44,037 bases of DNA from positions 1 to 44,037 of the IMG/VR virus record IMGVR_UViG_3300037258_000330; one strand, 5' to 3'. The position numbers were made by a program, and so were the translations under genes. Of this stretch, positions 1 to 44,037 are shown piece by piece. The notes under the pieces are model-generated. The model ran no database searches. It was not told the DNA's origin and worked only from the letters and a program-made list of their open reading frames with translations. The stretch's first letter is position 1. Every line of letters begins with the position of its first letter. Origin of the DNA: a virus.

Positions 1-127
1 GTTTGCCGCCCAGTTTGAGCGGACGCGCGCCGAGGAGTCTCAGCCGGGCTACACGCCCCCGCCGCCGCCCTGGTGGGAGACCCGTCGCCCCCCGACGCCG
101 GCGCCGACGCGCCGGATGAAGGTCGAG
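1..127. repeat. Terminal overlap copy 1 (identical to 43911-44037)
   Basis: Base-by-base reading of both ends gives a 127/127 match. Confidence 0.97.
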
Positions 128-496
128 GAGCTGGTCGCGGCCTGCCTCGGCCCCGAGTCCGCAGCCGCGCTCGAGTCGCTGGTGCTCTGGCTGATGGTCG
201 AGCTCGGCGACCGCGACAACGCCATCACGCGTTCGGCGTGGCTGCGGTCGATCCCGCGCCTGCTCGAGTCGGCCGAGGGTTTCGGTCAACTGGTCGAGCT
301 GATTCTCGCCGCGCCGAAGAAACCCAAGCCAGCGAACTGGCTCTCGACGTGCCTGGCTCGAGGACGGCCAGACGCATCGCAGCAAAAAAACCGACCCCCG
401 GAGCCACACACCACTGTTCCCCGGGGGTCGGCCGAAGAAACGAACGACGCAGGCGATCCGTCTGGGTACAAGTATACACGAAGGGTAAATCCGTGA
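1..496 (+). CDS. 3' part of the junction-spanning replication-initiator-like gene (continues from 43366..43910)
   Basis: The frame of ORF-track entry 116..496 is the same frame as the open frame 43366..44037 once the 127-bp overlap is collapsed. The stop TGA is at 494-496. The combined length is 1041 nt (346 aa). Confidence 0.7.
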   Translation, partial: FAAQFERTRAEESQPGYTPPPPPWWETRRPPTPAPTRRMKVEELVAACLGPESAAALESLVLWLMVELGDRDNAITRSAWLRSIPRLLESAEGFGQLVELILAAPKKPKPANWLSTCLARGRPDASQQKNRPPEPHTTVPRGSAEETNDAGDPSGYKYTRRVNP

Positions 497-531
497 AACC
501 GTACCTGATGGAACCCTACGCGAACGCCAGA

Positions 532-633
532 CGCATCGGTTTTAACGATGCGCCCAACGAGGATGACGGGGCTCGAACCCGCAACCTCCGGCGTGACAGG
601 GCTCCAATCTATCGGCTCGTCGCATCGTTAAAA
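532..633. repeat. Inverted repeats bracketing the attP core: TTTTAACGATGCG (540-552) / CGCATCGTTAAAA (621-633), plus a third CGCATCG at 532-538
   Basis: The 13-bp arms are perfect reverse complements read directly. 532-552 is itself a 7-bp-stem hairpin. Confidence 0.85.
558..599 (-). other. attP core: 3' half of a tRNA-Asp(GUC) (anticodon loop to discriminator), not a full tRNA
   Basis: The minus strand reads CTGTCAC (loop, anticodon GTC) GCCGG AGGTT GCGGG TTCGAGC CCCGT CATCCTC G. T-arm, variable loop and 3' acceptor are canonical. The upstream sequence cannot pair as a 5' acceptor or 5' anticodon stem. It lies 150 bp from the integrase. Confidence 0.7.
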
Positions 634-647
634 TCGGTTCGTTCGGC

Positions 648-682
648 ACCTGACCGTAGGCTTTACAAGCCTCTGGTCAGGT
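648..682. repeat. Imperfect 35-bp palindrome upstream of int (ACCTGACC..AGGCTT tac AAGCCT..GGTCAGGT)
   Basis: Outer 8-bp and inner 6-bp arms are reverse complements. It lies between attP and the int start. It is a candidate recombination-directionality, IHF or operator site. Confidence 0.6.
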
Positions 683-745: not shown

Positions 746-1756
746 ATGCGCGCTGGCAGCGTACCCTGGTCGCAGTTCGTCCAGGAGGTCGTCGACATCT
801 ACAGCCTCGAGCGTCAACCGAAGACGGTGGCCAAGATGCGACAGGTGCTGACCGAGTTCGGATCACTCGTGAAATCGACGTCGCAGTTGAAACCCGCGAC
901 GATCGCCCGGTGGCGAAAACTGTATCCGCATCGCGCCCAATCAACGGTCCACTCCCTGATGCGGTCACTTCGATCGGCTTGCGAGATCGCGATAGCCAGC
1001 GGGTACATGCTATCGTCGCCCCTTGCCGTAAAGCAAGTGTGGCCCGAGCTCGACGACCCCGATCCCGATGCCGAGAAGCATCATGCGATCTCGGAGATCC
1101 GGGCCGTGCTGCTCAACCTGCGGAGCCAGTCGGGCTATTCCTGGCACGATGCGCGCCTCTATGCCCTGGCCGCGACGGTGGCCTATACGGGGGTCCGGAA
1201 GAACGAGGCGCTCCATCTCCAGATCCCCGATCTCGACTTCGATCGGCGCTGCATCCGAATCGTGTCCCGCCGGCCGCGGGCCGGCGGATCGACGAAGATG
1301 CCCAAGCTCAAAACCAAGGCCAGCGCGGCGCCCGTCGGGATGCCGGACGAGCTGGCGGCCGTGCTCGAGCTCTGGGTCGCCAAAGCCGTGGCGCCGCCGC
1401 TCGTGGCGCTTCGCCGCGCGTCGAGGCCTGCACAGCTCTGGCTCTTCCCCGGGTCGACGGGCGCGAATGCCTGGACCGGCGGTCCGCCCGGCTACAAGCC
1501 GCTCGACGTCCTCGTGGCGGCCGGCTCGGCCGTCGGCGTGGATGGTTTCACCTTCCAGTCGCTGCGTCACTCCTGGGCGACGCACGGCGAATACTGGGGC
1601 CTGGGCGAGACGATGATCCAGCGCCAGCTCCGGCACACCACGCGCAAGACGCAGCAGGTCTATCGCCACGCCGACCTGGCGAACCTGGCCACGTCGGTCC
1701 GGGCGATCTCGTTCGTCGGCCCGTCCGAGCGCGGGCCCAAGGTCGCCCAGGTCTAA
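746..1756 (+). CDS. int: Tyrosine recombinase / phage integrase
   Basis: 336 aa. Contains TGVRKNEAL (box I Arg), LRHSWATH (H-x-x-R region) and LRHTTRKTQQVYRH (His and catalytic Tyr). GGAGG is 8 nt upstream of the ATG. The gene is adjacent to the tRNA-fragment attP. Confidence 0.95.
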   Translation: MRAGSVPWSQFVQEVVDIYSLERQPKTVAKMRQVLTEFGSLVKSTSQLKPATIARWRKLYPHRAQSTVHSLMRSLRSACEIAIASGYMLSSPLAVKQVWPELDDPDPDAEKHHAISEIRAVLLNLRSQSGYSWHDARLYALAATVAYTGVRKNEALHLQIPDLDFDRRCIRIVSRRPRAGGSTKMPKLKTKASAAPVGMPDELAAVLELWVAKAVAPPLVALRRASRPAQLWLFPGSTGANAWTGGPPGYKPLDVLVAAGSAVGVDGFTFQSLRHSWATHGEYWGLGETMIQRQLRHTTRKTQQVYRHADLANLATSVRAISFVGPSERGPKVAQV

Positions 1757-2019
1757 CCCCTTCCCTCCCCTGCCGGCCGATCTCCCCCCTCGGCCGGCTC
1801 GACGACGACGTCGAACGACCGGATCGGGCAGCGCTCGATCAGGTCGCAGAGCACCACGCTCGCGTTCGCGGCGTCGCGCTCGAGCACGATCCGATCGAGC
1901 CGCCGTGCGACCGCCAGCGGCAACGTGATGTGCAGCGTCCGCCGCACGCCGCCGGGGAGCTGGCGCTTGCGCACCACTTGGCGGCCGGGTGGTTTCGCGG
2001 GTTGTCGTTTCACGGCCAT
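1753..2019 (-). CDS. Ribbon-helix-helix (Arc/CopG-like) DNA-binding protein; candidate repressor or excision regulator
   Basis: The internal ATG at 2019 has GGAGG 7 nt upstream. RRTLHITLPLAVARRLDRIVLERDAANASVVLCDLIER fits strand-helix-helix. It is divergent from the early operon and its 3' end overlaps int by 4 nt. Confidence 0.7.
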   Translation of the reverse strand: MAVKRQPAKPPGRQVVRKRQLPGGVRRTLHITLPLAVARRLDRIVLERDAANASVVLCDLIERCPIRSFDVVVEPAEGGDRPAGEGRG

Positions 2020-2094
2020 CGCGGTTCCTCCGTTCCTTCTTTTCGCGCATCCCATCAGGACTCAATCCTTCGGTCAACCCCAGGAGCCACAACC

Positions 2095-3552: not shown

Positions 3553-4424
3553 GACCGGCGCTGCGCTATTACGGGGGCAAGTGGAAGATCGCGCCCTGGG
3601 TGATCAGCCATCTGCCGCCCCATCGGGTGTATGTCGAGCCGTTCGGCGGCGCGGCGTCCATCCTCTTGCGCAAGCCCCGCTCCTATGCCGAGGTGCTCAA
3701 CGATCTCGACGGTGAGGTTATCAACGTGTTCGCCGTCCTGCGCGATCCCGCCTCGGCGCTACGCCTGAAGGAGATCGTAGCGCTCACTCCGTTCGCACGG
3801 GACGAGTTCAAGCTTGCTCATGAATGGTCCGAGGAACCGGTCGAGCGTGCGCGGAGGGCGGTGATTCGTGCCTTCATGGGCTTTGGGTCGAATTCGTTTC
3901 ACGGGAAGGGGGGCATGCGGACGCGCTCATCTCCATGGACGGTATGCCGTACGGGTTTTCGCGCGAATGCCAAGCGCCAGGGTACGACGCCGGCGAGCGA
4001 CTGGGCGAGCTGGCCGGACTCGATTCCCGGGTTCATCGAGAGACTCCGTGGCGTGGTGATCGAGAACCGCGATGCGCTCGAGATCATGCGCCAGCACGAC
4101 GGCGCGGAGACGCTCTATTACCTCGACCCGCCCTACCTGATGACGACCAGGTCGTCGCGCGATCAGTACACGTTCGAGCTCGACGAGGACGGACACCGCG
4201 AGCTGGCCGAGGTTGCTCGATCGATGGTCGGATCGGTCGTGATCTCGGGTTACCACTCCGAGCTTTATGAGGACCTCTACCGCGGCTGGGTCCGCGTCGA
4301 GCGGCCCGCCCTGGCCGACGGCGCGCGGCCGCGTACCGAGGTCCTCTGGCTCTCGCCACGGGCGCACCGATCGTTACGGGACTCGAGGAATTCACTGTTC
4401 GATTTACTGGGACCACTCGTATGA
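3549..4424 (+). CDS. dam: DNA N6-adenine methyltransferase, Dam/D12 class
   Basis: YYGGKWK, EPFGGAASI (AdoMet motif) and YLDPPY (catalytic DPPY) are all present. Confidence 0.92.
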   Translation: MRPALRYYGGKWKIAPWVISHLPPHRVYVEPFGGAASILLRKPRSYAEVLNDLDGEVINVFAVLRDPASALRLKEIVALTPFARDEFKLAHEWSEEPVERARRAVIRAFMGFGSNSFHGKGGMRTRSSPWTVCRTGFRANAKRQGTTPASDWASWPDSIPGFIERLRGVVIENRDALEIMRQHDGAETLYYLDPPYLMTTRSSRDQYTFELDEDGHRELAEVARSMVGSVVISGYHSELYEDLYRGWVRVERPALADGARPRTEVLWLSPRAHRSLRDSRNSLFDLLGPLV

Positions 4425-7111
4425 AACCCCGCATCCAAGAAGACTCTCCCGACCCCCTGCGGGTCACACCGAAACGCCTGGCCGACGAGCTCGGCCAGAT
4501 CGGCGACCAGCTCGGCCGGCTGGCCAACCGCGTCCGGCCGTTCGCGTTGCTCCTGGACGCGGCCGTGCGCGATGACGTCAACGCGCTGTACGACTCGATC
4601 ACGGTCGGCTCGCGGCGGGCCGTGGACCTGGCGGCGTCGATCCGGTTCGGCGGCGCGGCGATCGTCCAGGCGCTCGTCGACACCGCGGCCGGCCGCGGCG
4701 AGCGGCCGCTCCTCGACCGGATCGAGAGTGCTCCGGCTCCGGCCGGGCCGGCCGCGGGTTATGAGTCGGTGCTTACGGCGCTGCCGGGGGCCAACGGGGC
4801 GGCCGAGCCGGAGCCGGCGAAGCGAAGCGCCAAGGCACCGGCGAAATTCGCGTGGGAGGTGTGGGCCTTCAACTCGGCGGGGATGCCGGTCTCGCTCTGC
4901 CCGATCACAGTGCCGACTCGCGATCCGGAGCGGGCGCTCGAATATGCGCGGCAGGCGGTGACCGAGGGTGAGGACAAGCTCATCGACATCGATAGGTCTC
5001 TCGTTCCCGTCGATCCGGCCAAGCTCAAAGTGCTTCGCATGGGATCGCCAGAGGCGGTGAAATTCGCGTCCGAGTCGGAGCGGGCGCCGGCGTGGACCGG
5101 GGGTGAGGTCGTCGCCGCCGGCGAGTACACGCTCGAGGAGCTCGGCCTGGGCGGCCAGCTCGACCGGATCGAGGCTGCATACAGCGGCGACACGATCGCG
5201 AGCAATGGAAAGCTCCGGGGCGTGATCGCCGTCAAGGATCGTCTCTATGCCAATGTCGGCGGCCTCATGAAGGGGGGCACGATATTGCGGGTCGATCTGG
5301 TCAAGCTGGTGCCGCTTGAGAGCTGGACCGGGGCGAGCTGCACGTATGCGGAACGGGCCATGACGCGCCCGCATAAAGATTTCTACAATTCCGTCCGGGT
5401 CGAGCACAAGGGCCAGTCGTACGTGATGCTCGGCAAACTCGGCCGGTTGAACATCGTTATCCCGCCGGCCGCTGAGACGGTTCCCCAGCCGGCCGAGCCG
5501 GCGCCGGTCGAATCGGAGCCGGAGCCGGCCGAGGCGCCCGAGAAGACCGTCAAGATCCCGACCGACGCCGAGGAACGCAAGGCGCGGCGGCGCGAGAACG
5601 ACGCGAAGTACCAGGCCAAGAAGCGCGAGAAGCGGCTGCTCGACAAGGCGATCGGCAACCGGGTCGAGTCGGCCGGCCCGGTCGATCGCCGCGAGAAACT
5701 CCGGGAGCCGGTGCTCGGGCCGACCGTGCCGGCGAAGTCGCTGGCGACGCCGGCCCACTGGGCGTCCGTGCCGATCGCCGAGCTGCAATTGACCGACGCC
5801 AGCAAGCGGGCCCTGGCCGACGGCATGAAATTCAAGACGGCCGGCGACGTCGCCGACTGGCTCGCGACCAACCCCAAAGCGCCCTGGCCGACGCCGTCGG
5901 CGACGCCGTGGCCGGAGGTCGTCGAGATCGCCAAGGTCGCGATCGAGCTCGTCAAGAAACTGCATGAGCAGCCGGCCGAGCCGCCGGCCGACGTCGAATG
6001 CTGCTCGGTGCTCTCGCCGTGTCCCGAGGGTTACCAGCGGGTCTACAGCGTGCACGCGCGGGAAACCTACACACGGGCGGAGATCCGGGCCGGCGCGAAG
6101 CCGCAGCGCCTGGGCGAAGTCATCGCGGCCAACATCGATGAGGCGAAGCTTGCGGCGGCGCGCCGGTTCGGCGTCCGGCCGGTCGAGGTCGGCGAGTGCA
6201 TGGTCGATGGTGGCAAGGGGCAGAAGATCGTTCGTGTGCCTCGGTTTGATGTGCTCGATCTGAAGGCGGTCGACAAGAAAGGCCAGTACAAGGTCCTGGG
6301 CACGATCGATGCGCCGAACAGCGCCCGCGCCCGGATCATCGCCGAGAAACGGTGGTCCGACCTGCCGCCCGACCGGCTCAACATCCGGAACGTCGAGCTC
6401 CGGCCGGCCGAGTCCAAGCCGCGCAAGCCGAAACCGAAGCCGGCCCCCGAGCCCGACCCGCTTGAGAACCTGTTTATCTATTGGGGCCAGGGCAAGGGCG
6501 GGAAGCAGGTGAACCCGGTCTACGGGATCAAGGCGCCGTCGCTCACGGCGGCGGTCGCCTGGGTCGATGCGCATCACCCCAAGGATCACGGCGGCCAGGT
6601 CCGGCCCGACCTCGACGGTACGATCGTGCGCCGCAAGGTGCCGGTCGTCGTCGATCTCGTGCTCAATCCGGCGGCCCATCCGGACCCCCCGCCGGCCGAG
6701 CTGGCCACGCCGACGGCCGCAGGCCAGATCGACCTATGCACCCTGCATGGCCAGCCGCCGCTGCCGGCCGGGCACGAGCGCGTCTTCAGCGTGTACGACA
6801 GCCGGACAAATCCGCCGACTGTGCTCGGCGAGATCGCCGGCGCGAACATCACCCGGGCCATGATGGCGGCCGAGGCGCAGTGGCCCGACGTGCCGAAGCG
6901 GATGCTCGCCTACAAGCCCAAGCTCGCGCCCGGGACCAAGCATCAGGCGACCCGGCCGGCCAATCGGCTCGTCGACCCCGACGTCGAGCTGGCGGAGTTC
7001 CGGCGCTCGTTCGACGTCGGCGCCGACCGCGCGCAGTGGCTGCTCGAGCAAAGGAGCAACGGCGAGCCGGACCTCGAGCCGGAGCCGGCCGAAAGCGAGG
7101 CGTCCGGATGA
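4421..7111 (+). CDS. Large orphan early protein (896 aa) with five repeated beta-beta-alpha-like modules, Pro/Glu/Ala linkers and a helix-hairpin-helix-like segment
   Basis: ATGA coupling to dam. The composition is protein-like, unlike the Arg-rich antisense ORF 4277..6679. ELQLTDASKRALADGMKFKTAGDVADW resembles an RNA polymerase alpha-CTD-type HhH. Confidence 0.85.
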   Translation: MKPRIQEDSPDPLRVTPKRLADELGQIGDQLGRLANRVRPFALLLDAAVRDDVNALYDSITVGSRRAVDLAASIRFGGAAIVQALVDTAAGRGERPLLDRIESAPAPAGPAAGYESVLTALPGANGAAEPEPAKRSAKAPAKFAWEVWAFNSAGMPVSLCPITVPTRDPERALEYARQAVTEGEDKLIDIDRSLVPVDPAKLKVLRMGSPEAVKFASESERAPAWTGGEVVAAGEYTLEELGLGGQLDRIEAAYSGDTIASNGKLRGVIAVKDRLYANVGGLMKGGTILRVDLVKLVPLESWTGASCTYAERAMTRPHKDFYNSVRVEHKGQSYVMLGKLGRLNIVIPPAAETVPQPAEPAPVESEPEPAEAPEKTVKIPTDAEERKARRRENDAKYQAKKREKRLLDKAIGNRVESAGPVDRREKLREPVLGPTVPAKSLATPAHWASVPIAELQLTDASKRALADGMKFKTAGDVADWLATNPKAPWPTPSATPWPEVVEIAKVAIELVKKLHEQPAEPPADVECCSVLSPCPEGYQRVYSVHARETYTRAEIRAGAKPQRLGEVIAANIDEAKLAAARRFGVRPVEVGECMVDGGKGQKIVRVPRFDVLDLKAVDKKGQYKVLGTIDAPNSARARIIAEKRWSDLPPDRLNIRNVELRPAESKPRKPKPKPAPEPDPLENLFIYWGQGKGGKQVNPVYGIKAPSLTAAVAWVDAHHPKDHGGQVRPDLDGTIVRRKVPVVVDLVLNPAAHPDPPPAELATPTAAGQIDLCTLHGQPPLPAGHERVFSVYDSRTNPPTVLGEIAGANITRAMMAAEAQWPDVPKRMLAYKPKLAPGTKHQATRPANRLVDPDVELAEFRRSFDVGADRAQWLLEQRSNGEPDLEPEPAESEASG

Positions 7112-7831: not shown

Positions 7832-8938
7832 ATGAAGGCTACATGCTCGCGGCGTGGCTTTACCCTGATCGAGATTCTGATGGTGATCGTGATCATCGGC
7901 GTGCTCGTCGGCCTGCTCGTGCCGGCGATCGCGGGCGCGATGCGGGCCGCGAATAACGCGGCCGTGCAGTCGGAGCTGAACGCGCTGGCGTCGGCCCTGA
8001 CGGCGTTCCGGAGCCAGTTCGGCGACTATCCCCCGTCGCGGATCTTGCTCTGCGAGGACGGGAATTATGCACCGTTCTTCACGTCGGGCACGTACACGCT
8101 CGGCCAGACGGCGAGCCCGTCGGCGATCGACCAGTCGGACGGGGCGCTCGCGGCCCGGTCGATCTCGGCGCTCCGGAAGATGTTCCCGCGCTGCGCCCAG
8201 TCGGCCGCCGGCCCGCTCTACAACCTGGCGAGCGGCTGGCCCGACTACAACGGCAACGGCCAGATCGACCCGCCGCGGCTGATCTCGGGCGACGAGTGCC
8301 TGGTGTTTTTCCTCGGCGGCCAGCCGACGAAACTGGCCGGCCCGCCCGGCTCGTCGACGCCGGCCTGGGCGACGACCGGGTGGGGCGCCGACCCGCGGGC
8401 GCCCTTCCTGGTGGCCGCGAAGAACCGGATCCAGCCGCTCTATGATTTCGCGGCCAACCGGCTCGTCGACGCCGACGGCGATGGGTACCCGTCGTACGTC
8501 GACAGCCTCGGCACCAGCCGGCCGATCGTGTACTTCAGCGGGTACAGCGGGGCCGGCTACGACCCCAATGACGTGAACTTCGACGTCGGGTCAACATACG
8601 TCGAGACCGACGAGAACGGCACCACGTCGCCGATCGCCTTGCGGTTCACCGTGGCGTTTCCCGTGCTGGGCGGCGCACCGGCGGCGATCTCGCCGGCGCC
8701 GAACCCGTACACGTATTCGACGTCGGTCGCGAGCCCGGCGAACTGGATCAAGCCGCAATCGTTCCAGGTCTTCTCGGCCGGCGGCGACGGCCAGTACGGG
8801 GTCGGCGGCCTCTATAGCGACTCGGCCGACGAGCCGTTGCCGGTCGACACGGCGAACACGACGCCGTCGTCGGATGCGGGGATCAGGATACGTGAGCGTG
8901 ACAACCTGACCAATTTCCGGAACGGCCGGCTGGACTGA
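7832..8938 (+). CDS. Prepilin-type (GspG/type IV pilin-like) protein with a large C-terminal extension
   Basis: MKATCSRRG/FTLIEILMVIVIIGVLVGLLVPA shows a class III signal peptide with Gly-1, Phe+1 and Glu+5. The following helix, NNAAVQSELNALASALTAFRSQFGDYPPS, resembles T2SS GspG. GAGG is 7 nt upstream. Confidence 0.85.
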   Translation: MKATCSRRGFTLIEILMVIVIIGVLVGLLVPAIAGAMRAANNAAVQSELNALASALTAFRSQFGDYPPSRILLCEDGNYAPFFTSGTYTLGQTASPSAIDQSDGALAARSISALRKMFPRCAQSAAGPLYNLASGWPDYNGNGQIDPPRLISGDECLVFFLGGQPTKLAGPPGSSTPAWATTGWGADPRAPFLVAAKNRIQPLYDFAANRLVDADGDGYPSYVDSLGTSRPIVYFSGYSGAGYDPNDVNFDVGSTYVETDENGTTSPIALRFTVAFPVLGGAPAAISPAPNPYTYSTSVASPANWIKPQSFQVFSAGGDGQYGVGGLYSDSADEPLPVDTANTTPSSDAGIRIRERDNLTNFRNGRLD

Positions 8939-14920: not shown

Positions 14921-15349
14921 TTATGCCAGGATCACGGGCCAGGTGAGGGCGCCGGAGATCTTGGCCGTGACGGGGATCTTATGCACATCCTCGAGCGATT
15001 CGATGCCGGGCGCGATGGTGCTGACCATTGCCGAGAGCGAATAAAACTTGGTCGCGTTGGTGTAGCATTGGACGACCAACAACGTCCCCGGGCGGATGTT
15101 GGCCAGGTCCGTGTCGGTCGGCGGGTTGTTGTCGTCGTAGACCAACGTGCATTCGAAGTCGACGTCGGTCAGAGTCAGGGCCGGCGTTCGGCCGGAGAGG
15201 AAGTTGGAGACGTCGACGAGCTTGCCGTCGATGTTCAATTTCCAATTCATGGCCGGCTGGACGACGGCCGTCAGGGTGTCCGCGATCAGGTAGGAAAACT
15301 TGAGCACGGCCACGGGGCCCGCGATCGGGGCGATGGGGGTAAGGGTCAT
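14921..15349 (-). CDS. Major tail (tube) protein candidate
   Basis: 142 aa, immediately upstream of the G/GT chaperones, with RBS GAAAGAAGG. The function is positional. Confidence 0.65.
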   Translation of the reverse strand: MTLTPIAPIAGPVAVLKFSYLIADTLTAVVQPAMNWKLNIDGKLVDVSNFLSGRTPALTLTDVDFECTLVYDDNNPPTDTDLANIRPGTLLVVQCYTNATKFYSLSAMVSTIAPGIESLEDVHKIPVTAKISGALTWPVILA

Positions 15350-15362
15350 GAGACCTTCTTTC

Positions 15363-15890
15363 TCAGGTGCTATCGCCGGAGAGGTTGATTCCGAAGGTGA
15401 TGGGGTTTGAACCGGGGTTCGCGATTTTCAACTGATCGCTCGAGCCGGATCCGACCGGGATGCCGGCCGCGTTGGTGGCGACGATCAAGAGGCAATCAAA
15501 TACTGGGATCGCTTGCGTCGATCCGATCGTGACCGGGTGTGTCGCGGCCTGGCCGAAGTTGAGGTAGTCACCGTCGACCCGGTCGATGAGCCAGACAAAC
15601 GCCTTGCGCAATCGCGCGAGGGCGAGCGATCGGGTGAGGCTGTCGGTGAGCGCTGACAGCGTGTAAGTGACGGATGACCCGCCTGCGAGTGTCACGGCGG
15701 TGTCGCCGCTTAGCTCCCAATGCACGTCAACGACACTCGCGACCGTGCCACTGGTCGAGGTTCCGTTTGACATCGGATACGTGGCCTTGCTCGTCCCCTG
15801 GGCGGGAAGACTGATGGGGCCGACGTCGATGTTCTCGGTGATTTGATCGCTGACTGTGACCGTGTTGAGGCAGTTGATCGAGACCGACAT
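15363..15890 (-). CDS. Virion structural protein (175 aa, beta-rich)
   Basis: The internal ATG at 15890 is 4 nt after the upstream stop. The longer track ORF start would overlap the upstream gene. Confidence 0.65.
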   Translation of the reverse strand: MSVSINCLNTVTVSDQITENIDVGPISLPAQGTSKATYPMSNGTSTSGTVASVVDVHWELSGDTAVTLAGGSSVTYTLSALTDSLTRSLALARLRKAFVWLIDRVDGDYLNFGQAATHPVTIGSTQAIPVFDCLLIVATNAAGIPVGSGSSDQLKIANPGSNPITFGINLSGDST

Positions 15891-15894
15891 ATCA

Positions 15895-16338
15895 CTATCC
15901 CCTTGCGAGTGTCCAGGTGATCGACCGCCGGCAGACCCAGACGTCCTTGCCGTACGCGGCCCGGGTCTCGGCGTCGATCTCGATCGCATCGCCGCCGGCC
16001 GGCTGGCGGTTGACGTCGCGCCAGCCGCCGGCGATTCCGATCGGCGACCAGGCCGGCTGGTCGTCGGGGGGGAGCAAGATGTCCCGGGCCAGGTTGCCGG
16101 CCGTCTCGACGGCCGACCGGGTTGTCGCGAACGTGCTGACCTCGATATGCAGAAACGCGATCTCGCGGCCGCCGAAGAGGCGCAGGTAATTGGCGTCGCG
16201 CTGCTGCAACACCATGTATGCGAGCGGGTCGTCGCGGCCGGCCTGGCCGTCGGCGATGCCGCCGGGCAGGACGGCGACGAGCTCGGGCTGCGCGAGCAGG
16301 TAATTGCGGATCGCGCCGATCAGGTGCGGTGTGCTCAT
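15895..16338 (-). CDS. Head-tail joining / tail terminator-like protein
   Basis: 147 aa. Position is between the gp10-like gene and the tail tube genes. Confidence 0.6.
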   Translation of the reverse strand: MSTPHLIGAIRNYLLAQPELVAVLPGGIADGQAGRDDPLAYMVLQQRDANYLRLFGGREIAFLHIEVSTFATTRSAVETAGNLARDILLPPDDQPAWSPIGIAGGWRDVNRQPAGGDAIEIDAETRAAYGKDVWVCRRSITWTLARG

Positions 16339-16341
16339 CAG

Positions 16342-16863
16342 TCAGTAGCCTGCGCGGGTGGCGCCCCGTCCGAGGATCCCGGAGCGGAACTGGTTCGAAG
16401 TGATGCCGATCAGACTGCCGGGCGTGCTCTGGCCGAGCAGGATCGAGCGGATCTCGGGCTCGTGGCGGCGAAGGGTCACGACGATAAACGGCCGTCGCTT
16501 CATCTTCCGCGTGCCGAGCTCGAGCCAACGGCCGTATTTCACATTGGTCCCGACGCGGCCGATTACTGAGGGGCCGCCCATGCCGACGGGAACCAGCTCC
16601 CACATGATCATGTCGTGGAGATGGCCGGTCTGAGTGAAGGGCGGATTGCCCGGCCGGCTATGGGTGAAATTCCGGATGGTCAAGGTCTTCTTGAGAGCCT
16701 TGCCCTTCTTGCCGATCGGGTGATATACGAGCCTTCCCGACTGCTTGATTTCAGACTTGATCCAGCTCTGAAGTCGGATCGCCGCGGTCCGCGTGCGACG
16801 CTTCGTCTCGGCCTGATACTGCCGGATGAACTGATTGCCGAACCAGTCGACGCGCCCGGCCAC
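16342..16863 (-). CDS. HK97 gp10-family tail-completion / neck protein
   Basis: GTNVKYGRWLELGTRKMKRRPF matches the family signature. GTG start directly after the upstream TAA. Confidence 0.75.
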   Translation of the reverse strand: MAGRVDWFGNQFIRQYQAETKRRTRTAAIRLQSWIKSEIKQSGRLVYHPIGKKGKALKKTLTIRNFTHSRPGNPPFTQTGHLHDMIMWELVPVGMGGPSVIGRVGTNVKYGRWLELGTRKMKRRPFIVVTLRRHEPEIRSILLGQSTPGSLIGITSNQFRSGILGRGATRAGY

Positions 16864-42456: not shown

Positions 42457-42875
42457 GCTGGTGTGACTACCGGCCGGTCGTGACCGTCGTTGACGTCCTC
42501 GAGACGAAGGCCTGCTATTCCGGCGTGATTGACTGGATCAGCCGGCACGACAGGCTGATCAGTGCGCCGACGGACCAATTTGCGAACCGCTACGTCAACA
42601 CCGCCGCCCGCGCTGACGGCTCCGGCTCCGGCTACGGCGACGGCTCCGGCTCCGGCTACGGCGACGGCTCCGGCTACGGCTACGGCGACGGCTCCGGCTC
42701 CGGCGACGGCTCCGGCTACGGCTACGGCGACGGCTCCGGCTCCGGCTCCGGCTACGGCGACGGCTCCGGCTACGGCTCCGGCTACGGCTCCGGCTACGGC
42801 GACGGCTCCGGCTACGGCTCCGGCTACGGCTCCGGCTACGGCGACGGCTCCGGCTACGGCTCCGGCTCCGACTGA
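42453..42875 (+). CDS. Protein with N-terminal Cys-containing domain and a C-terminal (G-S/Y/D) repeat tail
   Basis: ATGA overlap with the upstream gene. MSWCDYRPVVTVVDVLETKACYSGVIDWISRH is followed by DGSGSGYGDGSGYGYGDGSG... Confidence 0.7.
   Translation: MSWCDYRPVVTVVDVLETKACYSGVIDWISRHDRLISAPTDQFANRYVNTAARADGSGSGYGDGSGSGYGDGSGYGYGDGSGSGDGSGYGYGDGSGSGSGYGDGSGYGSGYGSGYGDGSGYGSGYGSGYGDGSGYGSGSD
42615..42872 (+). repeat. Tandem 6-nt/18-nt coding microsatellite (GGCTCC / GGCTAC / GGCGAC units)
   Basis: About 43 consecutive hexamer units read directly. All are in frame with 42453..42875. Confidence 0.95.
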
Positions 42876-43365: not shown

Positions 43366-44037
43366 ATGGCGTCTTCCCGAGCGATCCACCGGCTCGAGGT
43401 CCTGGTCGATCTCCAGCTCGACGGCCGTCTGTCCGCGACCGCGCGCCTGATCCTCGGCTCACTCCCCCCGCTGGCCGGCGGGGGGGTGGTGAGCCCGACC
43501 GACCGCGAGCTGGCCGAGCTGCACGGCTGCTCCGAGCGAACCGTCCGGTCGGCACTCGCCGCCGGCGTCCGCGCCGGCTGGATCCGCCGGCTCACCCGGG
43601 CCGAGGCTATGGCCGAGCGCCTGGTTCCCCGGGAAGCGGCAAAAGGCCGCCGGTACCTGGTGCTCCTGTGGGTGGTCGAGGCCCGCGAGCCGGCAACTTT
43701 CTGCCGGCAACTTCCTGCCGCTTCCCCGTTGGCTACCGGCAGGAAGTTGCCGGCTCCCACCGAGTTGCCGGCAGAAAGTTGCCGCCCCCTCGCGTGTGCG
43801 CCCGTTTCGAACCCCTCTTTACGAACGAAGAGAGAAGAACGTACGAGCGATTTCTCTCCCCCCGTGGGAATGCCGCCCTTGACCGGGTGCAGTCCCGCGA
43901 CCAAGCGCCTGTTTGCCGCCCAGTTTGAGCGGACGCGCGCCGAGGAGTCTCAGCCGGGCTACACGCCCCCGCCGCCGCCCTGGTGGGAGACCCGTCGCCC
44001 CCCGACGCCGGCGCCGACGCGCCGGATGAAGGTCGAG
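43366..44037 (+). CDS. 5' part of the junction-spanning replication-initiator-like gene (wHTH N-terminal domain; continues at position 128 after collapsing the overlap)
   Basis: The ATG at 43366 opens a frame with no stop to the window end (hand-translated). Contains ARLILGSL...VSPTDRELAELHGCSERTVRSALAAGVRAGWIRR. It is absent from the ORF track because it runs off the end. Confidence 0.7.
   Translation, partial: MASSRAIHRLEVLVDLQLDGRLSATARLILGSLPPLAGGGVVSPTDRELAELHGCSERTVRSALAAGVRAGWIRRLTRAEAMAERLVPREAAKGRRYLVLLWVVEAREPATFCRQLPAASPLATGRKLPAPTELPAESCRPLACAPVSNPSLRTKREERTSDFSPPVGMPPLTGCSPATKRLFAAQFERTRAEESQPGYTPPPPPWWETRRPPTPAPTRRMKVE
43690..43784. repeat. Iteron cluster: CCGGCAACTT(T/C)CTGCCG twice direct and twice inverted, plus one extra half-site
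   Basis: Direct copies are at 43690-43707 and 43704-43720. Inverted copies are at 43737-43753 and 43768-43784. The half-site AGTTGCCGG is at 43763-43771. Copy 1 is the reverse complement of copy 4, and copy 2 of copy 3. Confidence 0.9.

Follow-up and report, generated by a model that had tools for sequence, protein, structure and literature searches.

A probable attP site carrying the 3' part of tRNA-Asp(GUC) in a temperate tailed phage of Isosphaeraceae

The 44,037-nt stretch of viral DNA analysed here (IMG/VR record IMGVR_UViG_3300037258_000330, positions 1 to 44,037; referred to below, at its full length, as the window) is the complete, circularly closed genome of a temperate tailed phage. 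Positions 366-745 of the window are very probably the attachment site (attP) of a phage of Isosphaeraceae that targets the host gene for tRNA-Asp(GUC). This reading rests on sequence identity, genome form, integrase type, family-wide conservation and the integration of a relative. It builds on an earlier note, made from the letters of the same DNA alone, which had proposed an attP core identical to a host tRNA 3' end rather than a phage tRNA gene. The features at the centre of the site are the following (all coordinates are those of the window unless another locus is named; L numbers are our own labels for contigs and loci).

558..600, minus strand: predicted attP core, identical over 43 nt to host tRNA-Asp(GUC), C31 to discriminator G73 (BLAST, Rfam)
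593..599, minus strand: anticodon loop CTGTCAC, the putative 7-bp overlap (strand-exchange) region
592..584, minus strand: predicted right-hand core half-site GCCGGAGGT, consisting of 3' anticodon-stem and variable-region sequence

On the minus strand, positions 599..558 read CTGTCAC GCCGG AGGTT GCGGG TTCGAGC CCCGT CATCCTC G, letter for letter the tRNA 3' half that the earlier note had described, and identity to the host gene in fact extends over 43 nt (558-600), beginning with C31, the last base of the 5' anticodon-stem strand. BLAST identity of the core covered tRNA positions 32-74 of 74, CCA was not encoded, the same as in host genes, and the fragment was matched in 0 of 100 shuffles. The five bases 5' of the anticodon loop are GAGCC in the phage as opposed to CCGGC in the host tRNA, so that the anticodon stem cannot form, in line with the claim that the sequence 5' of the loop lacks matching stems. 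ARAGORN called no tRNA gene at the fragment (558-640) and found no complete cloverleaf there, as had been expected, and the Rfam tRNA model, when run on the stretch cut at 601, gave a 5'-truncated match (model positions 29-71; 17.5 bits, E = 0.069) that was under the gathering score.

The form of the genome was equally informative, and one further feature is needed for it.

1..127 (= 43911-44037), no strand: terminal direct repeat, the mark of a genome that is circular or terminally redundant (unit 43,910 bp)

The first 127 bases of the window equal its last 127, and a separately assembled 4.4-kb contig (L099, from SRR11832711) was 100% identical across the terminal-overlap junction. Together, the overlap and this independent junction-spanning contig indicate that the window is a circular or terminally redundant phage genome. 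The genome has a G+C content of 67.8% and encodes a large terminase (about 36% identity to its best match among GenBank phages), a portal protein, head proteins and a tape-measure protein, as well as a DNA methyltransferase. The tRNA-Asp 3' fragment and the integrase gene each occur once in the window, and a circular tailed-phage genome with a single fragment and a single integrase implies that the site is attP, neither attL nor attR. In Isosphaeraceae genomes an orphan tRNA-Asp 3' fragment next to an integrase can indeed be the sign of an attR junction, as in L097, and on that precedent the fragment of the window could be an attL or attR prophage end and the window a piece of host chromosome. 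We consider this very improbable in view of the 127-bp terminal overlap with its identical junction contig, the single copy of the fragment with no full tRNA-Asp in the window, and the synteny of the core flanks with related phage contigs, in which a 346-aa open reading frame (ORF) lies on one side and int on the other.

Ten related elements (L100/L101, L102, L103, L104, L107, L109, L110, L111 and L112), with integrases 36-62% identical to that of the window, carried a 100%-identical core divergent from int within diverged flanks. An unchanged core amid diverged flanks would be expected if the core has to fit the host sequence and rebuild a functional tRNA. The closest integrase homologues were 50-62% identical. 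In L100/L101 and L102 the core occupied the same slot, between an ORF of roughly 345 aa and int; the L103 and L104 contigs ended at or just past the core; and four IMG/VR viral contigs obtained by scanning with the 42-mer (599..558) had the same layout, with integrases 36-43% identical. IMG/VR scans with the integrase and with a conserved block of the P' arm (described below) gave no matches. The left edge of tRNA identity, in linear positions, was 32 in the window and L100, 29 in L102, 28 in L103 and L104, and 21 in L107, and it lay at or near the anticodon loop in all relatives. Judged by sequence, the site belongs to the anticodon-loop sublocation class of tRNA attachment sites, with an identity block that starts at the anticodon stem-loop and with putative cleavage points in or beside the loop.

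The same comparisons bear on the idea that the fragment is not a recombination site at all and is instead a decayed phage tRNA gene or a functional half-tRNA, acting for example against host anticodon nucleases. Phages often carry tRNA genes, the minus strand at the site folds well (z = -3.8) and has a terminator downstream on the same strand, and ARAGORN folds a weak 71-nt 'tRNA-Asp' in the equivalent region of L104. However, all relatives keep 100% identity to the host gene over the 43 nt despite their diverged flanks and integrases, identity stops sharply at the anticodon loop where a decaying gene would behave otherwise, there is no 5' half and no promoter-like site was found at the fragment, and a relative is demonstrably integrated at exactly this segment (see below). 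We therefore regard a tRNA-like function or relic as scarcely credible. Prophage-end, pseudogene and chance origins were accordingly rejected on the circular form, the exact conserved core, the shuffles and the integrated relative, and the earlier proposal of an attP core rather than a phage tRNA gene was upheld by the absence of an ARAGORN call, the merely 5'-truncated Rfam match, the circular genome and the single copy.

Two of the related contigs deserve separate mention. The ARAGORN fold in L104 (2-72, minus strand) has a 5' part that is not host sequence, the contig ends 2 nt after the tRNA, and the call is probably an artefact of the genuine 3' half. L107 (1-820; a JGI 3300086553 contig), with an integrase 55% identical to that of the window, has 54 nt of tRNA-Asp identity. 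Behind its core comes lower-GC DNA that lacks the P' block of the family, with a signal-peptide protein encoded next; the contig may represent the attR of a closer relative integrated as a prophage.

A relative of this phage is integrated in tRNA-Asp in Singulisphaera sp. GP187 (NZ_FSRB01000002.1, about 1,552,693-1,586,856), where the element spans about 34.2 kb and encodes an integrase 43% identical to that of the window. At its attR an orphan fragment (L097 692-647) lies beside int in the divergent layout and is followed by a host-type terminator. At its attL, on the same strand and about 34 kb away, a full tRNA-Asp (L062 2930-2856) is followed by non-host DNA and a terminator. S. acidiphila provides the empty site: its left flank aligned with L062 to 2857 and its right flank with L097 692-99, and the two alignments were contiguous with an overlap of 46 nt that starts in the anticodon stem. 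In a four-way alignment the GP187 attL had three phage-type bases 3' of position 41, the attR was host-type, and the GP187 P arm diverged 5' of C31, which together place the GP187 exchange within CCTGTCACGCC (C31-C41, the loop and three bases), a position that agrees with the anticodon-loop sublocation known for tRNA attachment sites. The earlier note had predicted integration into tRNA-Asp with regeneration of the gene; this is what attL, attR and the empty site record for the GP187 relative, but no junction of the phage in the window itself was found.

Some details of the GP187 locus were also observed. The element sits in the second of the tandem tRNA-Asp copies. In the regenerated tRNA, A42 (phage side) pairs with T28 (host side), and the empty-site gene has C28-G42; the A42-T28 pair is either a compensatory change after integration or a pre-existing polymorphism. 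The T-loop of the GP187 tRNA also differs (TTCGAAT).

The 42-mer was then used to place the host. Among species representatives (one genome per species, 185,579 species) it occurred exactly at 105 sites in 98 genome stretches, nearly all of them labelled Isosphaeraceae, Planctomycetales or Planctomycetota, and the named isolates were all Isosphaeraceae (Singulisphaera, Aquisphaera, Paludisphaera, Tautonia and Tundrisphaera). About 88 of the 105 sites lay within complete tRNA-Asp(GTC) genes, in which GGGGATGTAGCTCAATTGGTTAGAGCACCGGC is followed by the 42-mer and CCA is not encoded, and about 15 further sites were orphan 3' fragments with unrelated upstream DNA. A host match in high-GC bacteria, especially Planctomycetota, had been predicted beforehand, together with the value of the site as a handle on host identity. 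Both expectations were borne out, in that the matches support Isosphaeraceae (Planctomycetota) as the host family of the phage and name nothing finer, because the 42-mer is common across Isosphaeraceae.

The orphan 3' fragments in Isosphaeraceae genomes indicate that other elements also use the tRNA-Asp gene; several element families seem to integrate there, which makes it an apparent hotspot in Isosphaeraceae. Orphan fragments were present in L022 (3331-3372 and 5293-5334, two in tandem, 2 kb apart), L001, L014, L021, L035, L040 and L068, and further in L070, L075, L078, L079, L083 and L092, and upstream motifs common to several of them were GTTATGGCG... and TTAAGAGACGCGGCGAAAA.... Contig L061 (CAVUNS010000012.1), from the one metagenome-assembled genome with a different label among the matches ('Candidatus Acidoferrales'), bears an Isosphaeraceae-type tRNA-Asp and is probably a mis-binned planctomycete contig.

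The enzyme expected to act on the site is encoded directly beside it.

746..1756, plus strand: tyrosine integrase of 336 aa, transcribed away from the att core; the sole integrase in the window

Its catalytic residues are R151, K189, Q271-x-x-R274, H297 and Y306, of which R151, K189, R274, H297 and Y306 were invariant in 46 homologues, position 271 being Q here and usually H. Profile searches matched PF00589 (E = 3e-12) and the phrog_1 integrase (E = 3e-28). An AlphaFold model (pLDDT 88.6) consisted of four N-terminal helices (residues 1-84) followed by the catalytic domain, and the full-length model superposed on XerA, Tn1549 Int(82-397), XerH, IntI4 and lambda Int(75-356), at sequence identities of 12-21%. 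A Pfam search gave no arm-binding or other N-terminal family in the integrase at E <= 0.01. Since the model aligns with lambda Int(75-356) and Tn1549 Int(82-397) only, the integrase is modelled as a two-domain protein (four-helix core-binding domain and catalytic domain) in which an arm-binding domain is absent.

We infer the exact cleavage positions, the bound proteins and the integration of this particular phage as follows. Along the tRNA strand, the site is ordered as int (start 746, pointing away), the palindrome (682..648), a 13-mer (633..621) and the core (600..558), and then a hairpin (552..532, 4 nt past the tRNA end), a conserved block (496..468), a repeat (454-466), a terminator (431..384) and CGATGCGTCTGGC (379..367). 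The integrase would pair the phage core with the identical segment of the chromosomal tRNA-Asp gene and exchange strands in or beside the 7-nt anticodon loop, the core-type half-sites being GCCGGAGGT and its imperfect inverted partner. The gene would thereby be split, with the phage copy replacing the displaced 3' part base for base, so that a wild-type tRNA-Asp would stand at attL. Predicted attL reads ...GGTTAGAGCACCGGC-CTGTCAC...CATCCTCG-TTGGGCGCATCGTTAAAACC, and predicted attR reads ...CCGATAGATTGGAGCC-CTGTCAC...CATCCTCG, followed by the host flank. The P' arm would follow the regenerated tRNA and bring its own terminator (431..384) about 127 nt downstream; a tRNA 3' part followed by a downstream terminator is likewise the arrangement in L100, L102, L106 and GP187. 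The displaced host 3' fragment would stay as an orphan beside int at attR, as int is divergent from the tRNA fragment.

The arms of the site contain the following features.

540..552, plus strand: TTTTAACGATGCG, left arm of a 13-bp inverted repeat, in the P' arm, 5 nt past the tRNA 3' end
621..633, plus strand: CGCATCGTTAAAA, the right-hand arm of this repeat; P arm, at a distance of 21 nt from the core
526..538, minus strand: proximal copy of CGATGCGTCTGGC, overlapping the P' hairpin
367..379, minus strand: distal copy of CGATGCGTCTGGC, just past the terminator, an exact direct repeat of 526-538
454..466, plus strand: CGATCCGTCTGGG, a degenerate inverted copy of the motif with 2 mismatches
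468..496, minus strand: TCACGGATTTACCCTTCGTGTATACTTGT, a nearly invariant P'-arm block kept in L100, L102 and L106, synonymous positions included
468-496 region: CACGGATTTACCCTNCGTGTATAC, the sequence form of the conserved P'-arm block
384..431, minus strand: predicted intrinsic terminator with stem CCGACCCCCGG / CCGGGGGTCGG (431..391) and T7 (390..384), 127 nt past the tRNA 3' end

The terminator hairpin and its T-run were kept in L100, L102 and L106, and an analogous terminator was present in the GP187 attL arm. A metagenome scan with the P' block matched only L106 (Ga0182024_10226579; 1887-1933, minus strand), in which the block was near-identical, the terminator was kept and int was divergent. 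The core of L106 is a different, 5'-truncated tRNA with the anticodon loop CUACGGA (Arg-ACG; RF00005, 23.4 bits, under the gathering score), and the N-terminal domain of its integrase was only 36% identical to that of the window. An Arg-type core with a shared P' arm indicates that the phage family has changed its tRNA target at least once.

On its opposite strand, the block at 468-496 holds the end of the 346-aa upstream ORF, YKYTRRVNP* with its stop codon. The 29-nt block is almost invariant though the integrases are about 60% identical or less, contains a CACGGA/TCCGTG inverted repeat and uses TAT, ACA, GTA and AAT, which are rare codons in so GC-rich a genome; its conservation looks like a constraint at the level of DNA or RNA. 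The 346-aa ORF wraps round the window ends and has its stop at 494-496, its coding signal in third-position G+C (GC3) is lost from about 300, and its tail crosses the minus-strand terminator hairpin. This tail (300-496) may not be genuine coding sequence.

The 13-bp inverted repeat occurs in the window, at <= 2 mismatches, only at 540-552 and 621-633, which are exact complements. Among 2000 shuffles of the non-coding region 497-745 (249 bp), 3 produced an exact inverted repeat of at least 13 nt, and such a repeat was present in 7 of 351 same-sized windows of this genome (about 2%). The repeat thus exceeds chance, yet it is not conserved: the bracketing of the fragment by 13-bp inverted repeats, as claimed earlier, is exact, but only this phage has it, and it is no general property of the site. 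The left arm forms, with 532-538, a small palindrome or hairpin (532-552) that was also seen in the minus-strand RNA fold. A third CGCATCG, likewise noted before at 532-538, was there, and the motif recurs at 373-379 and, in degenerate form, inside 454-466. The two occurrences of GCCAGACGCATCG, 367-379 and 526-538, make an exact direct repeat; L100, too, has a directly repeated sequence, whose copies lie at the tRNA end and past the terminator. Overall, CGAT(G/C)CG occurs five times in 367-633, in both orientations and with exact 13-mers included, as a repeated motif of the P and P' arms. CGCATCG was not enriched genome-wide (19 found against 26.6 expected) and is notable only for its local clustering. 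Each relative carries repeats of its own. The phage-specific CGATGCG repeats, the 13-bp inverted repeat included, would most likely serve as sites for an accessory protein.

These repeats might instead act on RNA, with the 13-bp repeats and hairpin serving as a 3' trailer that guides processing of the regenerated tRNA-Asp or stabilises it, and with the P-arm copy being incidental. A hairpin follows the discriminator by 2-4 nt in the window, L100, L102 and L106, with unrelated stem sequences and, in two cases, stable tetraloops (GAAA in L102, TTCG in L106); the right repeat arm lies partly within a 10-nt insertion relative to L100 and L102, both of which have no P-arm copy; and the integrase lacks an arm-binding domain. 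Nevertheless, some of the five CGATGCG copies lie far from the tRNA end, and two exact copies of a 13-mer stand on either side of the terminator in direct orientation, an arrangement usual for arm sites that bind protein. In L100 a similar direct repeat occupies both of these positions, and a palindrome in L106 with similar half-sites (GCATCGGTT) lies in the P arm, which would not be transcribed with the tRNA. An RNA-level role is therefore a possibility that we hold to be rather unlikely, and binding of accessory proteins to the DNA is the reading that we prefer.

The P arm holds one more element, a 35-bp palindrome just upstream of int that the earlier note had already reported and that proved, in addition, to be conserved and core-like.

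648..682, no strand: palindrome between core and int, with 16-nt arms 648-663/667-682 that are 88% complementary with two mismatches

In the direction of the tRNA strand, the palindrome is centred on ACCAGAGGC-TTGTAAA-GCCTACGGT (653-677), and the host attB is AGCACCGGC-CTGTCAC-GCCGGAGGT. The resulting pattern ACCNNNGGC-N7-GCCNNNGGT, which we call the pseudo-core, has the same half-sites and 7-nt spacing as the attB anticodon stem-loop. It was present in the P arm exactly in L102, L103, L107 and L109 and with 1 mismatch in L100. Both arms equal the tRNA half-site GCCGGAGGT in L102, and in L100 and L109 one arm is GCCGGAGGT exactly and the other has 1 mismatch. The attP core of L104 is itself a perfect palindrome with 9-bp arms, ACCTCCGGC|CTGTCAC|GCCGGAGGT. 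No exact copy of the pattern was found elsewhere in about 0.85 Mb of fetched loci.

These similarities suggest that the palindrome copies the half-site pattern of the core and would most likely be a second integrase-dimer binding site, serving as an int operator, an architectural element or both, to which we assign about an even chance. More speculatively, an integrase without an arm-binding domain may build the attP complex from the pseudo-core, an idealised duplicate of its core site, which would replace lambda-style arm sites and link the assembly of the intasome with autoregulation of int; that one P' arm is combined with Asp cores in most members and an Arg-ACG core in L106 would then reflect a modular swap of target specificity. 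This extension is tentative and its odds are clearly poorer. About as doubtful is the contrary view that the palindrome is a mere transcription signal for int, or the operator of an unrelated repressor, and resembles the core by coincidence. The palindrome does occupy the place expected of a promoter or operator, 64-98 nt ahead of the int start codon, its pattern is statistically not rare in the window alone, and no exact copy was found between int and core in L104, L110, L111, L112 or the GP187 element. A coincidence would nonetheless have to account for 9-bp inverted half-sites around exactly 7 nt that six distinct elements, whose integrases are 36-62% identical, all carry in the P arm, for arms that equal GCCGGAGGT exactly or with one mismatch in L100, L102 and L109, and for the core of L104, which is this perfect palindrome, in a set of loci where the pattern occurs nowhere else.

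Several results weigh against the reading of 366-745 as a tRNA-Asp attP, or against the roles given to its parts. None of the 88 full tRNA-Asp loci was followed by the P' arm of this phage, and none of the orphan fragments in the species representatives was preceded by its P arm. An exact look-up of the integrase returned only 1 other contig, which was likewise in attP form. In the about 10 kb of the GP187 element that were compared, the integrase was the only protein detectably similar to this phage. The left core half-site, ATTGGAGCC in the window, is a poor match to the consensus. The pseudo-core is not improbable in the window alone, as 33 of 100 shuffles had at least 1 match at <= 1 mismatch, and its distance from the core varies from 59 to 124 bp, with residues of 6.0-8.5 modulo 10.5 bp and no firm helical phasing. 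Finally, the 13-bp inverted repeat is absent from the GP187 element, L100, L102 and L106, which leaves its role uncertain.

Convergent with int lies a small gene.

1753..2055, minus strand: small ORF of 100 aa (...LHITLPLAVARRLDRIVLERD...), convergent with int

Homologues of this ORF were found at the same position in L100, L102, L103 and L104. It had no significant Pfam or PHROG family, and the L104 homologue gave a weak ribbon-helix-helix hint (PF23807, E = 0.073). It is a candidate for a DNA-binding accessory protein, either a directionality factor or a regulator, and might be the protein that the CGATGCG repeats would bind; a ribbon-helix-helix nature is a guess.

Other observations concern the wider genomes. 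L100 (GCA_040384185.1, JAWVGY010001605.1), the closest related phage, encodes a second, longer integrase (15207-16532, plus strand; 441 aa, 40% identical to that of the window), which lies some 5 kb further downstream than its first one. At 7832-8938 (plus strand) the window encodes a protein whose N-terminus has a methylation motif like that of type IV pilins; it has a counterpart in L100 (14089-15159; 56% identity), the GP187 element encodes a protein with a similar pilin-like N-terminus (L097 3808-5148), and one gene in L103 has a weak match to the N_methyl domain. These planctomycete phages may share the gene as a conserved accessory function. Near the window end, at 42615-42870, there is a tandem repeat array (periods of 24, 30 and 42 nt, GGCTCC/GGCTAC units, 85-89% matches), which also showed up as repeated matches to the start of L099. 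ARAGORN called a tRNA-Arg(CCG) at 4682-4757 (minus strand), which we rejected as a probable false positive: it lies within a long ORF with a strong coding signal, 4421-7111 (plus strand; GC3 0.89), and Rfam gave no tRNA match at 4682-4757 at E <= 1.

Sites of the tRNA type have been known as attP for decades and their mechanism is textbook material. On the sequence, the site described here is an attP of the standard tRNA type, falls in the anticodon-loop class and is accompanied by a tyrosine integrase, and what is new, the pseudo-core palindrome together with a two-domain integrase, adds a modest angle. Searches of the literature turned up no paper that describes this site or any phage of Isosphaeraceae. 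The analysis assigns an uncultivated 43.9-kb temperate phage and at least 10 related elements to Isosphaeraceae hosts, and the host link is of value because phages of Planctomycetota have barely been described. The integrase and its attP/attB pair are a possible tool for site-specific integration in planctomycetes, which are hard to manipulate genetically.

Anticodon-loop sublocation is a known class of tRNA attachment sites (Williams 2002, as cited in bioRxiv 10.1101/2020.11.02.365908); one example is ICEAfe1 of Acidithiobacillus ferrooxidans, for which 19 bp around the anticodon loop suffice. Like the sites of this class, the one in the window has identity running from the anticodon stem-loop to the tRNA 3' end, a symmetric stem flanking a 7-nt loop and an adjacent tyrosine integrase, with the tRNA predicted to be restored at one junction and an orphan 3' fragment to be left at the other. 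Unlike the examples of the class, its target is the tRNA-Asp of Isosphaeraceae, and int would adjoin the orphan fragment after integration, not the intact tRNA. The GP187 element shares with this phage the divergent layout of int and fragment, the same tRNA-Asp sublocation, an integrase at 43% identity, a small ORF that runs towards int, and a P'-arm terminator on the tRNA strand, but its tRNA 3' half differs from that of the host at three positions, and it carries neither the pseudo-core palindrome nor the 13-bp inverted repeat.

The attP of lambda consists of a P arm, a COC' core and a P' arm, with arm-type sites that are bound by the N-terminal domain of Int and with sites for IHF, Xis and Fis. 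The site in the window resembles it as a complex site of about 380 bp with short motifs repeated in both arms and orientations, with inverted half-sites around a putative 7-bp overlap, and with int adjacent. It differs from lambda in its tRNA gene target, in the full second core-like palindrome of its P arm and in its integrase, which lacks an arm-binding domain and in the model superposes on lambda Int 75-356 only. In this respect the enzyme is closer to the IntI/Xer group (XerA, XerH, Tn1549 Int), with which it shares a two-domain fold and its best sequence and structure matches, although identity is 12-21% and the site is a phage attP for a tRNA gene, not dif, attC, attI or a transposon end. 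The attI1 site has extra IntI-binding repeats beside its simple site, and these repeats are a precedent for accessory core-type sites used with an integrase that lacks an arm-binding domain.

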